NCBI GenBank assembly: GCA_001724245.1
Contig: MEDX01000028.1
Location: forward strand, 1 to 41,293
Reading direction: 5' to 3'
DNA: 41,293 nt
Source of the DNA: Fonticula-like sp. SCN 57-25
Taxonomy: Eukaryota
Part shown: positions 36,363-41,293 of the stretch, piece after piece
How positions within the stretch are numbered: position 1 is the stretch's first letter
Layout of the letters: the number at the start of each line of letters is the position of its first letter
Program-made: the position numbers and the translations under genes
Notes under the pieces: generated by a model
What the model saw: only the letters and a program-made list of their open reading frames with translations
Told to the model about the DNA's origin: nothing
Database searches by the model: none

Positions 36363-38935
36363 ATGGAGGACGCTGCTCAGGACTGCGTCGTTTGCCGCGA
36401 GCCTATCCGGTACTATCTGCTCGGCCCTTGCGATCATCGCCACACGTGCCACCTGTGCGGCCTGCGCATGCGCGCCTTGTACGAGACCAAGACATGCCCT
36501 TATTGCAAGCTTGAGGCTCCCAAGGCGATATTCACGTCGGACCCGTCGACGCCGTTTAATTTGATACGGCTAGGGACGATGCATGAGCATCGAAAACTGC
36601 AGATCTTTTGCGAAACGCCCGAGCTGCTGCGCGAGGTGGAGCATTTGCTACAGTTCAATTGCCCGGACTGCGGTACTTCATGCAAAAGAAAAGACGAGCT
36701 TAACCAGCATATCAAGAAAGAGCATCCAAAGCTGAGTTTATGGTGCGTCTCGATTGTTCTCTTTTTAGTGTGATTCCATTGCTGATCCGATGCTGACGCA
36801 GCCACATTTGCGTTGACAATCGCAAGTACTTTTTCCACGAGCACAAGCTGTACACGCAGTCTCAGCTTGACCGCCACCGCCGCGAGGGCGACCCGGACGA
36901 CCGCTCTTTCCGCGGCCATCGCCAGTGCCCGTTCTGCCGCAAGTGGGTGTTTGCCGACTCTGAGTACTACGACCACATGGAGCAGAACCACCACTTTTGC
37001 TTCATCTGCCGCCACGAGGGCAAGTTTGATCAGCACTACGCCGACTATCCCGCTCTCGTACGTAATTTGAAGCCGTGAAAGTTTCATTTTTGTGTGAGCT
37101 GAAGATCATGTTGCCTCGTCGTTTATTGTTTCACGTCGTTCCGTGTCGATAATTATGAAATCCACGTCATTTCAATGCCATTTTCATGTCATTTTCATTG
37201 TTTAGCATTTTTCATTGTTTTTTCCTCTCTTCTAACACTTTTTCTTCAGGAACGCCACTTTGAGCAAGCCCACTTTCTGTGCACCGACCCTCTCTGCCGC
37301 AACCAGTACATGGCCTTCAAGACCGAGCTCGACCTCAAGGCCCACCACACGCAAGTCCACCTCCCCGGCCTCAAGCTGTCACGTGCCCAAGAGCGCCAGC
37401 TTCGCCAGGTCGACCTCGGCTTTTCGTACGGCGCGCCCGGCCCGACCGGCGGCCGCGAAAGCCGCGAAAGCCGCGAGCAGCGCCGCGGGCCGTCTCGCCA
37501 GTCGCAGCATCAGCAGAACCAGCAGAACCAGCAGAATCAGGCACAAAATCAGCAGAATCAGCAGCAAAGGGCGCAGCAGCGTGAGCAGCAGCGCGAGCAG
37601 CGCGAGCTAAAGGCGGAAGAGGAGCGCGCTGCTGCTCGCGCTGCCGAGGCACAAAAGCTGACATGGGAAGAGCCGATTTATGTTGTCGCGTCAAACAATT
37701 CGTCGCGCGTTTCGTCGCCGACGGCGGCGTCGGCGGCAGCCGCGGCGGCCGCAATGGACGCGTGGGACGCGCCGTCTGCAAGTGAACTGCCGTCAACTGC
37801 AAGCAGCAGCAAGACAGTTCGACCGCCGCCCGGATTTGGCGCGCCACCTGGCCTCGCCCCTTCTGCTTCTTCTTCTTCTGCTTCAGCGCCGCCACCTGGT
37901 CTGCCGACCGGCCCACAGCGCAAAGAAAATGCGCGCCCGTCGGTCAAGACGCGCGCGCCCGCCGGTTTTGGCCAGCTTTCCACGACCGTTGCGGGTCCGA
38001 CGCGCGCGTCACGTGTGTCGGGATGGGACGACGACGAAGAAGAATTCGAACCTTTGCCGCCGCCGACGGAGAAATCATCAGAAGCATCTTCAGATGATTT
38101 GTTGCAGGCAGAGGACAGTGACTTGCGACTTGACCGCGAGCGTCAGCGCCAGCGCGCGTCATCACTGACGTCATCAACGTCTGCTTCTGCTTCGCCCGCG
38201 TCGCCCGCCGCGCCCGCCGCGACGCCGCTTATGCAGCGCAAAAACAATGAACTTATGGACCGCGTGCGCCAAGCGCTCGACAACCGCGAAGAATTTGTTA
38301 GTCAATTCCGCTCGGCATCGCGCGCATTTCAGCAGGGAACGACCGACGCGGCCACTTTTTACCGCTTTTACGTCGCGACGCTCGGGCCGAGCGCGTCGGC
38401 GCTCTTCCCACTGCTCGTTGAAGCACTTCCGGATGAGGCAAAGCGCAGTGAATTGTTGCGTGCAGAGGCCGACTGGAAGGCTGGTCGCAAGCCTTCTTCT
38501 TCTTCAGGTTCATCTTCAGGTGGTTCTTCAAGTGCTTCTGGCCAGAAAAAGGCGAAAATTCTTGTTTTGCGGCCGACCGCCGGCTCTGCTTTCGTCTCAA
38601 AAGGCAAAGGTGCCGCTGCGGCGCCGCGCGCGGCCGACCCCTGGGAGACGCAAAAACTCCAACAAAGTCTGCTCAAGCGTTGCACTGTCTGCAGCGCCCC
38701 AGTGTCTGTGCGCGACTATGACTGGCACTTGGCATCTCACATTGGCGGGTCGTCTTCCGGGTCGCGGCCAGTGACGCCAGTGACGCCCGTTGATGAGAGC
38801 GCGTTCCCTGCGCTCGGCGGGAAGCAGGCGGCCGCGCCGGTCGGGTGGGTCGGGAGGAACGGCGGCGGGGCGGCGGCGCCGTCGGCGGATATGTTTCCGG
38901 CGCTGCCGACAAAGGGGAAGGCGCCGAGGAAATAG
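36363..38935 (+). CDS. ZNF598: RING/C2H2 E3 ubiquitin ligase ZNF598/Hel2 (ribosome quality control)
   Basis: RING CVVCREPI...GPCDHRHTCHLCGLRMRALYETKTCPYCK, C2H2 fingers, FRGHRQCPFC...HMEQNHHFCFIC, HFLCTDPLC, and a PAH-like domain RKNNELMDRV...LVEALPDEAKRSELL. Confidence 0.92.
37510..37566 (+). repeat. Coding 9-nt tandem repeat (CAGCAGAAY, encoding QQN) within ZNF598
   Basis: cagcagaac cagcagaac cagcagaat caggcacaaaat cagcagaat cagcag. Confidence 0.8.
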
Positions 38936-39304
38936 AAGAGTGGCGCAGTTTTGTATAACGAGGATGTATTTAAAGATATAATGAACTATTTTGATTAGAT
39001 ATCGGCTCGGGATACTTGGAAAGTGGGGTGAATATGTGGATTTAGGCGTTGAATGGTGTGTTTTATAAGTCAAAAATGAACGAAAGAGAAGCAAAATTTT
39101 CAATAATGGGGCAATTTTGGATATAAAAAGCACATTGTCAGTGCTATTTTTCTATCGTTTTCATTTCTATACATGCATTTTTGCATGCACTTTTGTATAC
39201 AACGCTTACACACACTGTACGTTCCGTTTCCACGCTCAATTTTTATCAGATGCAAACTGATCTTAGTTTGCAGTGTTTCAAGCTGTCGTCATCCCCCCTG
39301 CGCG

Positions 39305-41293
39305 ATGTCGAGCGTCGAGCGGCCCCGCTGGCTGCTGCTCTACGCCTCGCTCGCCGTCCTTCGCGTGCTTCTCTCCGTTCTTCAAGGCGGATACGTCCAC
39401 GCGGACGAGTTTTTTCAGTCGCCCGAGCCGATATCGGGCGCCCTCTTTGGGTATCGCGTGCATTACGCCTGGGAGTGGCGGGATGGCCCGCACGGGATCA
39501 GCCGCAGCGCAGTCATTCCTCTATTGAATAGCGGCCTTCCCTTGTGGCTTCTTCAGCAGACCCGCCTCGCCGACAATGCGTGGGCGCTGCTCATCATCCC
39601 GCGTCTATTCAGCGTACTGTGGTCGTTTGCGATTGACGTGTGCGTCGTGCTGCTGTGCCGCCGCGCAGGGATGCCGACGCGCACGCCGCTTCTCCTGCTC
39701 GCATCCTCGTACGTAATGTGCGTCTTTTGCGGCCGCCCGTTCTCGAACGGTGCCGAAGCAGTCGTCCTGATGCTCTCTCTCGTCGCGGCCGCGCATCGCC
39801 ACTCGTTCCTCTTTGGCATCCTGTGCGCCATCGGCGTCTTTACGCGCGTCACCTTCCCCGCCTTTGCACTCCCCATCGGCGTCGCGCTCCTCTACGACGC
39901 CCTTTCGCGCCGCCGCATTTTCCTCTGCGCTTTCTCAATCGCCTCTGGCGCGCTCTTTGCCACCGCCCTGTGCGTCGCCGCCGACAGCGCCTTTTTCGGC
40001 CGCCCCTTCCTCGCCGCCCCCCTCAACAACGCCCTCTACAACGCACAGTCAGCACACCTCGCCGACCACGTGCTCCACCCGCGCTACGTCCACGTGCTCC
40101 TCAACCTCCCCATGCTCTTTTCTCCCGCCGCACCGCTGTGGCTCGCCTGGCGCGCCCTTTCCGGCGTCCGCCGCTGGCTCGCCGCCCTCAACGACCTCCA
40201 GCGCGTCTGCCTCGCCGTGATTACGTCATCTTTGCTAATTTTGTCGGCGATTCCGCACCAAGAGCCGCGCTTTCTCGTCCCGCTGGCGGCGCCGCTCGCC
40301 ATCGTCGCTGCTAGTGATAGCATTGTGACACGCGCAGGGCCGGCGGCCGTCGCTTTGTGGATTGCGTTCAATGTGATTGGTGGAATTGGGTATGGCCACG
40401 TGCACCAGGGCGGGCTTGTGCCTGCGCTTGTGTATGTGCGGCAGAGTGTCATTGAGGGGCGGGTGGCGGCGACGGAAATTCAAGTAGTTAGGGAAGTGAT
40501 GAGGGGGTTGCCGGGGGCGGAAGAAGGGATAAATATGCTGAAAAGTGATTGGAAAGGGGTGAAAAGTGGTGATTTGGAGGCGATTTGTGGTGATTTAGAG
40601 ACGATTTGTGAAGAATTTGCGTCAATTTGCACTGAATTGACTGTCAAATGCGATGCATTGGCGACAATTTCCGGTGATCTAGCGACTGTTTCAAATGAAG
40701 TATCGACAATTTCAGGCGAATTGGCGACTACTTCTAATGAGTTGTCAACCATTTCCGGTGAATTATCAACAATTTCAGGTGATTTGGCTGTCCAATCAGA
40801 AACATTACCGAGCGAAATTACCTATGAACTTTCCCCCCTCACCACCGCCCTCGAGCTCATCACCGCCCTTTCCCTCATCCGCCACGCACATTCCTCCACT
40901 TCCCTATCACCCATATTAACCGCCGCCGTCGCCGCTCGCCTTCCTTTTATTTCCCTCTTCTTCTGGCACACTTATATGCCGCCGCGTTACCTTTTAGCGC
41001 GCCGCGACGACCGCGTCAAAATTACCGACCTTTCAGGCGCGCCAGCACAAGAACTCGCCACTGAATTGGCCACGTGGCGTGAATCAGCGATGGCCACGTG
41101 GAATGAATCGTCACGTGATAATGCGCGTGCTTTTCTGTTTGCGCCCGCGACGGCGCCCATGGACGAGCTGGCGGCGGCGTGCGGTAATAGTTGTGGTCGG
41201 CTTGAAGTGATTGAGAGGTTTGCGCCTCACGTGACCATGGAGCATTTTGGGAGGTATTTTGAGATGGGAATGCGGCCTGGGCTCTTTCAGCTT
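39305..41293 (+). CDS. PIGZ: GPI mannosyltransferase IV (PIG-Z/Smp3); open to the window end, 3' partial
   Basis: Frame from ATG 39305 carries GYVHADEFFQSPE...YAWEW, RPFSN..E, GVFTRVTFPAF, PLNNALYN...HVLHPRYVHVLLNLPMLF, IPHQEPRFLVPL, HQGGLVP and FWHTYMPPRYLL. It is absent from the ORF track, presumably because no stop occurs before the window end. Confidence 0.92.
   Translation, partial: MSSVERPRWLLLYASLAVLRVLLSVLQGGYVHADEFFQSPEPISGALFGYRVHYAWEWRDGPHGISRSAVIPLLNSGLPLWLLQQTRLADNAWALLIIPRLFSVLWSFAIDVCVVLLCRRAGMPTRTPLLLLASSYVMCVFCGRPFSNGAEAVVLMLSLVAAAHRHSFLFGILCAIGVFTRVTFPAFALPIGVALLYDALSRRRIFLCAFSIASGALFATALCVAADSAFFGRPFLAAPLNNALYNAQSAHLADHVLHPRYVHVLLNLPMLFSPAAPLWLAWRALSGVRRWLAALNDLQRVCLAVITSSLLILSAIPHQEPRFLVPLAAPLAIVAASDSIVTRAGPAAVALWIAFNVIGGIGYGHVHQGGLVPALVYVRQSVIEGRVAATEIQVVREVMRGLPGAEEGINMLKSDWKGVKSGDLEAICGDLETICEEFASICTELTVKCDALATISGDLATVSNEVSTISGELATTSNELSTISGELSTISGDLAVQSETLPSEITYELSPLTTALELITALSLIRHAHSSTSLSPILTAAVAARLPFISLFFWHTYMPPRYLLARRDDRVKITDLSGAPAQELATELATWRESAMATWNESSRDNARAFLFAPATAPMDELAAACGNSCGRLEVIERFAPHVTMEHFGRYFEMGMRPGLFQL
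40568..40798 (+). repeat. Degenerate 21-nt (heptad) tandem repeat, 11 units, inside the PIG-Z coding frame
   Basis: GDLEAIC GDLETIC EEFASIC TELTVKC DALATIS GDLATVS NEVSTIS GELATTS NELSTIS GELSTIS GDLAVQS. Confidence 0.85.

Follow-up and report, generated by a model that had tools for sequence, protein, structure and literature searches.

A gene for a PIG-Z/Smp3-type glycosylphosphatidylinositol (GPI) mannosyltransferase, lying at the end of a contig of Fonticula-like sp. SCN 57-25 (NCBI GenBank assembly GCA_001724245.1, contig MEDX01000028.1, positions 1 to 41,293; the window is this whole stretch of 41,293 nucleotides), carries in one loop of its lumenal domain an in-frame insert of about 160 residues that is unique among the relatives examined. 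The insert is real, specific to its lineage and situated in a loop that tolerates changes of length, and it is probably translated; that translation extends over the whole insert we infer. Its middle part consists of eleven 21-nt units read as eleven heptads, coincides with A/T tracts that keep a single 10.5-bp phase, and is bracketed by a G-rich and a C-rich arm, a layout shared with other islands of the same genome. We hypothesize, with a probability of roughly 55%, that a DNA-driven repeat island grew in this tolerant loop and is now held there by selection at the protein level. The main rival is the reverse order of cause, in which the helix produced the periodicity.

An in-frame insert in a PIG-Z gene

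By every feature that could be tested in the analysis, the gene is PIG-Z. Its frame matches the Pfam family PF03901 (Glyco_transf_22) with E 3.4e-52, all matches named to subfamily are GPI mannosyltransferase 4, PIG-Z or class Z proteins, and match names and conserved columns put it nearer to PIG-Z than to either PIG-B or ALG9 and ALG12. The conserved core is retained in 60 of the 62 columns conserved at 85% or more. The DE motif of the first lumenal loop, described in PMC6056205, is present (Table 1). An AlphaFold model built with 117 sequences has a predicted local distance difference test (pLDDT) score mostly above 90 in the membrane core and in the alpha/beta domain past the insert, and Foldseek assigns it to the GT-C fold, the best structural matches being ALG9 and ALG12 (E 5e-9 to 2e-8). 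As these are the closest solved folds and their C-terminal domain sits in the endoplasmic reticulum (ER) lumen (PMC13503287), homology places the insert on the lumenal side of the ER, in support of the original prediction, which had placed it in the lumenal domain. Two columns that are 95% conserved in relatives deviate, namely P33A (39401-39403, beside the DE signature) and G256V (40070-40072, in the HGLHP motif). The contig end truncates the frame 7 residues short of the stop, and these last 7 residues were supplied by P0001, a protein of another assembly. The start codon is uncertain: the other assembly has Leu at the presumed start Met, intron-like sites lie just upstream (39170-39310), and a 5' exon is possible.

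The motifs HQGGLVP (40403-40423) and FWHTYMPP (40961-40984) are separated by 537 nt, that is, by 179 stop-free codons as originally described. In this spacer the five other frames (two forward, three reverse) contain stops, and base shuffling of the 537 nt gave a stop-free sequence in only 1 of 20000 trials. Of the 179 residues, about 20 belong to the loop helix and beta-strand that relatives also have, both kept here, so the true gain amounts to about 155-160 residues. An additional transmembrane segment is improbable (hydropathy over 19 residues peaks at 1.64, in a stretch overlapping the normal beta-strand), and DNA and protein searches of the assembly returned no further copy of the insert. 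The GC content is 0.49 in the spacer and 0.41 in the heptads vs 0.65 in the 5' part of the gene, and GC at third codon positions (GC3) is 0.31 vs 0.79, with TTA, ATT and TCA enriched; the AT-richness and odd codons that had been noticed are thus borne out, with the refinement that AT-richness is confined to the middle of the spacer, its left third being G-rich and its right third C-rich. In the left arm (40424-40573) Gly, Glu, Val, Lys and Arg make up 52% of residues and fourfold sites are G in 19 of 24 cases, while in the right arm (40805-40960) Leu, Ser, Pro, Thr and His make up 60% and fourfold sites are C in 26 of 36, such that the amino-acid make-up of both arms follows their base skew.

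In other PIG-Z proteins the two motifs are a few tens of residues apart, as the original prediction had stated. A motif search gives a median spacer of 22 and a maximum of 65 residues (129 of 163 proteins measured), a profile method applied to the same relatives gives a maximum of 58 (150 of 163 measured), and in genomic loci from metagenomes the spacer is at most 41 codons, in frame throughout and with no intron at the site (65 of 80 loci measured). Of the 34 of 164 proteins missed by the motif search, 26 were measured by the profile method at 12-52 residues, and the remaining 8, with at most 223 residues after HQGG, are too short there to hold both such an insert and the domain. The 179 residues are nearly three times the length in the next-longest relative, and linkers of this order are not common in orthologues. 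Spacers of at least 50 residues occur in 11 of 129 relatives, 6 of these being near-identical proteins, and the presence of 50-65 residues here in some relatives indicates that the helix-to-strand loop is length tolerant. The PIG-Z proteins P0009, P0012 and P0014-P0017 have long N-terminal extensions (in P0009 and P0012 with listed EF-hand domains) and also a 55-65-residue Asn/Thr/Asp-rich expansion of the same loop. In the JGI metagenomes a search with the single protein found no close relative, and the best segments obtained with an alignment query reached 38% or less.

The insert recurs beyond this assembly. P0001, from the second assembly, has an identical insert length and 3 amino-acid differences over 663 residues. 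Contigs from 4 of 21 runs, none of the 21 being listed as RNA, were compared; X1, from which this DNA may come, was left out of the count of independent runs, and 40463-40613 had next to no cover in any of the four. Contigs of X7 and X6 match the repeat gap-free, and a piece from X2 crosses the right junction (40872-41022) without difference; the cover of the repeat in X6, a run of unrecorded kind, was not taken as a sign of expression. A mis-joined or expanded repeat would be in keeping with a tandem repeat close to the end of a contig in a fragmented assembly and with run contigs none of which spans the whole insert. Against it stand the equal insert length in an assembly with different alleles and the gap-free and junction-spanning contigs, and we give next to no credence to an artefact.

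Run X7 represents a strain diverged by about 4%, whose contig over 40614-40818 has 8 other letters and no gaps. All 7 listed differences in the repeat are at third positions and synonymous (25-31% expected by chance), with P of about 1e-4 to 3e-4 for 7 of 7, or 4e-4 to 2e-3 should the unlisted eighth be nonsynonymous; outside the repeat, 15 of the 21 differences listed for the gene are synonymous when scored one at a time, so that the repeat seems at least as constrained as the enzyme. Sequencing errors would not land on silent sites alone. Units 5-11 use different codons in 45 of 80 same-residue pairs. Gene conversion between units may be a source of the silent changes, as each X7 variant base recurs at the matching position of other units (2-8 of the 10).

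The restriction of these differences to synonymous sites also implies that the insert is probably not an intron, which accords with the original prediction, as does the lack of a suitable AG just before FWHTY: the last AG ends at 40855, 105 nt upstream, in the context GAG. The spacer contains 21 in-frame GT-AG pairs at least 250 nt apart, none of which matches at both ends the four introns of the neighbouring gene DHTKD1 (about 50-70 nt, GTAC/GTGC...CAG), a small reference sample. An open frame by itself is no proof of coding in this genome, because T-rich periodic intron-like stretches at L119:7745-8746 and L113:8937-9998 contain no stop when read in frame with the exons on either side.

The heptads and the phased DNA beneath them

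The eleven acidic heptads that had been described are confirmed (14 Asp/Glu vs 1 Lys/Arg), as is the Cys that ends each of the first four in an alternative register (40568-40798) to the one in Table 1. Position a holds 9 Leu, 1 Phe and 1 Val; position d holds 7 Ile, 1 Val and 3 polar residues; position e is Cys four times and then Ser seven times, and g is mostly Asp or Glu. Leu at a, Ile at d, Cys or Ser at e and Asp or Glu at g form the pattern of multi-helix coiled coils, and the heptads may accordingly form a coiled-coil stalk, possibly oligomeric and linked by disulfides, if the pattern is taken at face value. The structure prediction that had been suggested as a check leaves the enzyme fold intact and makes the insert all helical in the full-length model; when the insert is modelled in isolation, the heptads form one continuous helix of about 80 residues (421-500) with pLDDT 83-95. 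A match below cut-off to the ice-binding beta-roll family PF21300 of Pfam (E 0.0035) was rejected, the model being helical. Neither a Foldseek search of the PDB with the isolated insert nor a profile search of PDB sequences gave a match, and the ESM Atlas gave no usable one.

Beneath the heptads lies a periodic DNA signal. The best A/T period of the insert is 10.5, and its power was reached by none of 500 independent synonymous recodings at each of three GC3 settings. The same phase is already present upstream of the heptads, at 40511-40573, where the tracts are Lys and Asn codons (R 0.70). Across the genome, 124 of 300 AT-rich windows peak at 10-11 bp vs 44 of 300 GC-rich windows, and of the 136 AT-rich dips in 241 kb, 73% tend toward the order G-rich, AT-rich, C-rich. 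A scan of 641 kb for skew islands returned 20 strong ones, with the PIG-Z insert at the top score; 18 of the 19 others have no open frame spanning them, and those inspected are repeat-filled introns or spacers. The original prediction holds in that the insert is in frame, beyond the range of orthologues and built as a helical a/d heptad; its codon usage, by contrast, is not peculiar to the insert and appears as a local form of a genome-wide signal.

The two arms can also pair. The fold-back exceeds block-wise dinucleotide shuffles at z scores of -4.2 to -5.4 (0 of 40 shuffles in each case) and is the strongest among the 20 islands, while z of -2 or below is found in 6 of the 19 others vs 1 of 22 random windows. 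A purely compositional fold-back was rejected, given its survival of block-wise shuffling. Aligned arm to arm, the similarity is only marginal (reached by 20 and 35 of 500 shuffles).

Related layouts are seen in several other places. The spacer between the upstream gene and PIG-Z (38925-39300) has the same G-rich, AT-rich, C-rich order with a period of 10.5-10.75 bp. A bZIP open reading frame (ORF) at L089:1703-1850 (G000:C2) contains a 21-nt repeat with A-tracts on a 10.5-nt phase that encodes a polar 7-residue Gln/Pro/Lys/His unit, not a hydrophobic heptad, and is likely a second coding island of the same kind, its coding status being read from the frame only. Equally strong periodicity occurs in 7 of 204 long ORFs, most of the others looking like introns read through in frame. 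At L097:7112-7290 (G000:C4) a protein kinase ORF runs on into an AT-rich, low-complexity Ile/Asn/Thr/Asp stretch with unclear phasing.

Origin of the insert

Under the reading that we favour, a local DNA process or constraint of this genome would build AT-rich islands with A/T tracts once per helical turn, bordered by a G-rich arm on the left and a C-rich one on the right. The unit would be free in length within introns and spacers; here selection would have allowed only a triplet-compatible 21-nt unit, equal to two turns. Because 10.5 nt are 3.5 codons and T at the second codon position specifies hydrophobic residues, phased in-frame T-tracts yield an a/d heptad on translation, and it may have been the A/T tracts on their 10.5-bp phase, with mirror G/C skew, that produced it. 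The arms would be read as Gly/Glu/Val-rich and Leu/Ser/Pro/Thr-rich helices. The island would thus have come first and the coiled-coil pattern second, to be fixed afterwards by selection on the protein. A full-length PIG-Z, the fourth GPI mannosyltransferase, would be made with about 160 extra residues looped from its ER-lumenal domain, probably with catalysis in the membrane core unchanged. The amphipathic helix, about 12 nm long, would most likely have its Leu/Ile face buried in a coiled coil or helical bundle, whether this forms inside a single chain or joins PIG-Z chains to each other; cysteines 7 residues apart cannot pair inside one straight helix, so in the oxidising lumen the four would be expected to bond between helices. 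A longer chain of events, in which a PATC-like curved-DNA island (PATCs are periodic An/Tn clusters) of the sort that inflates the introns of this organism grew inside an exon and, one turn of DNA corresponding to half a heptad, gave rise to a de novo coiled-coil domain and thence to an acidic stalk with a disulfide ladder, by which PIG-Z is oligomerised or tethered in the ER lumen, is on balance doubtful; if true, skew-and-periodicity islands would need no splicing and would act on DNA itself. As an internal control for this organism, the occurrence of a phased, skewed island within one apparently unspliced exon favours a DNA-level cause over a device for intron definition.

Several observations weigh against the favoured reading. 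The observed power was reached by 12-48 of 1000 recodings that take duplication into account (P about 0.01-0.05, a modest result) and by 18 of 500 within-block codon shuffles. The top rank of the insert in the island scan is favoured by window sizes that were fixed after this locus had been seen, and a 10-11 bp peak is present in 9 of the 20 islands and absent from the other 11. In the full-length model the insert has pLDDT of only 54-67 and is split into several helices. The signal of selection comes from one X7 contig of depth 2.2 in one run and covers the heptads, not the arms. No close relative lacking the insert was found, and the order of events was therefore not observed. Amphipathic helices alone produce 10-11 bp periodicity, according to PMC3431218, which leaves the direction of cause unproven.

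The last of these points is central to the main rival, in which tandem duplication of a heptad gave a coiled-coil stalk or spacer favoured by selection, and the signal at 10.5 bp is a shadow of the amphipathic helix and of local AT-rich codon use. It is consistent with the synonymous-only differences of X7, the clean a/d pattern and confident helix, the independent occurrence of look-alike heptads in the unrelated proteins P0287 and P0288, the accepted role of helices as a cause of such periodicity (PMC3431218) and the modest margin over the duplication-aware null. A coiled coil, however, leaves the skewed fold-back arms and the silent-site bias unexplained, the phase runs unchanged into upstream sequence that is not heptad, and non-coding islands of the genome share the layout; we consider this origin unlikely. 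Distinctly less probable is an exonised intron, a repeat-filled long intron that lost its acceptor and became coding once stops were purged. Its architecture would match the long introns at L112, L119 and L091, the periodic introns at L119 and L113 are stop-free in frame, donor-like sites exist at 40432 (GTATGT) and 40436 (GTGCGG), and a pyrimidine tract directly precedes FWHTY; but both donor-like sites lie within a conserved helix, the pyrimidine tract encodes a conserved beta-strand, none of the 65 measured metagenome loci has an intron at the site, and the intergenic islands show that the layout needs no intron.

A further alternative, which we regard as improbable, is an exitron, whose central part would sometimes be spliced out in frame with the help of the fold-back stem to give a short and a long PIG-Z. 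The insert resembles exitrons in being in frame and stop-free with weak splice-like sites, among them the 21 in-frame pairs mentioned above; the stem outlasts block-wise shuffling and is the strongest of the 20 islands, and excision of 40484-40855 would leave 55 residues, inside the range of relatives. On the other side, GAG is the only in-frame partner of the consensus-like donors, the donors of the four CAG pairs are GTGTCA or GTGATT, no pair agrees at both ends with the four DHTKD1 introns (a small sample), and other islands fold back as well. Exitrons are defined, and their candidates described as GC-rich, in bioRxiv 10.64898/2026.02.27.708503, whereas the insert is the AT-richest part of its gene and has no in-frame combination of consensus-like donor and YAG acceptor. 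A foreign insertion, whether a miniature inverted-repeat or fold-back element or a captured segment of a viral fibre, is very improbable: the arms bracket the insert with two perfect 10-bp inverted helices and the heptads are weakly similar to P0287 (E 2.9e-8, 33% identity), yet the insert is single copy in the assembly, the arms align barely above shuffles and the similarity to P0287 is limited to low-complexity repeat.

Gene features, host and related systems

The features of the gene and its insert are collected in Table 1. The sequence CACGTG occurs in 7 copies in the 1989 nt of the PIG-Z gene, vs about 0.5 per kb across 600 kb of the genome, and two of the seven sit in a 24-nt duplication at 41067-41109.

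Table 1. Positions in the window of the PIG-Z gene, its motifs and the parts of its insert
Feature	Position	Strand	Remarks
PIG-Z/Smp3-type GPI mannosyltransferase gene, single open frame	39305..41293	+	runs to contig end
DE + aromatic signature, first lumenal loop (putative catalytic acid)	39404..39412	+	HADEFF, residues 32-37
HQEPRF motif	40256..40273	+	invariant or near-invariant columns of the relatives' alignment
HQGGLVP and normal first helix of lumenal domain	40403..40450	+	alignment; model pLDDT 76-97
Left G-rich arm of insert; 5' strand of fold-back	40453..40573	+	
Nested long-range stem	40466..40935	.	perfect 10-bp helices 40466-40475/40926-40935 and 40489-40498/40897-40906
A/T-tract array on single 10.5-bp phase	40531..40819	.	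24/28 tracts from 40531 to 40815 within 1.5 nt; begins upstream of heptads
Eleven 21-nt units = eleven heptads, predicted continuous helix	40574..40804	+	Leu-start register
Right C-rich arm of insert with 18-nt tandem repeat; 3' strand of fold-back	40805..40948	+	
Normal beta-strand and TYMPP motif, lumenal domain resumes	40949..40984	+	model strand E589-594, pLDDT 82-97

The host assembly comprises 9.5 Mb in 749 contigs, and a strict first search found no 18S gene in it. The neighbouring dehydrogenase gene DHTKD1 has matches mostly at 59-66% identity, from fungi and animals about equally, placing the host no more closely than as a deep-branching, fungus-like opisthokont. The gene described here is the sole PIG-Z-like GT22 match in the assembly. 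A single other GT22 gene was found, at L146/L147 (G000:C57:24683-25755), which from its motif looks like ALG12; PIG-B and ALG9 were not found in the assembly, probably because it is incomplete.

For GPI biology, the insert points to a PIG-Z loop able to accommodate a very large insertion, and provides a natural variant in which lumenal oligomerisation or scaffolding of GT22 enzymes can be studied. For genome evolution, it is a candidate case in which the helical phasing of DNA wrote a protein heptad, whereas helices are usually seen as the cause of such periodicity. The main interest lies in this link of a genome-wide DNA signal to the birth of a protein repeat, rather than in the stalk, whose role is putative, and the weight of the finding is limited by its being a single-lineage feature of putative function. 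No report of a coiled-coil insertion in PIG-Z, or of phased DNA yielding a heptad, was found in the open-licence literature, which is weak evidence of absence.

With PIG-Z/Smp3 enzymes the protein shares the membrane core, the DE signature, the HQEPRF, HQGG and TYMPP motifs and the C-terminal alpha/beta domain; it differs in the P33A and G256V replacements and in a helix-to-strand loop of 179 residues with a Cys-bearing heptad helix, where others have 12-65 residues. The same a/d/e/g pattern is known from coiled coils with Leu at a, Ile at d and a small residue at e, such as the GCN4-pLI tetramer and designed helical barrels. Unlike these, the insert is nearly without basic partners, is rich in Gly, Ser, Thr and Asn, and is embedded in the loop of a membrane enzyme.

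At the level of DNA the nearest likeness is to the PATCs of C. elegans, which like the insert are AT-rich and repeat-derived with A/T tracts about 10 bp apart (bioRxiv 10.64898/2026.08.08.743475; see also PMC4947018), and which derive from minisatellites reshaped by mutational bias, according to the former. Further marks of PATCs are an origin from Helitron minisatellites, intrinsic curvature, disruption of nucleosomes and protection from silencing. PATCs are non-coding, mostly intronic and often kilobases long, whereas the array here is about 290 bp long, sits in a reading frame that is under purifying selection and is flanked by arms of mirror-image G/C skew; as it is in frame with synonymous-only differences, and PATCs are described as non-coding, it is best called PATC-like and not a member of the PATCs. 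A precedent for phasing inside a reading frame is human L1 ORF2, in which, according to bioRxiv 10.64898/2026.08.08.743475, a 10-bp signal is carried by codon choice and lost on synonymous recoding. There, as here, a signal of about 10 bp runs inside a protein-coding frame, but in L1 ORF2 it overlies an existing retroelement protein, whereas in PIG-Z, a housekeeping enzyme, it falls together with a segment that has been newly gained and whose amino-acid pattern it may have set.

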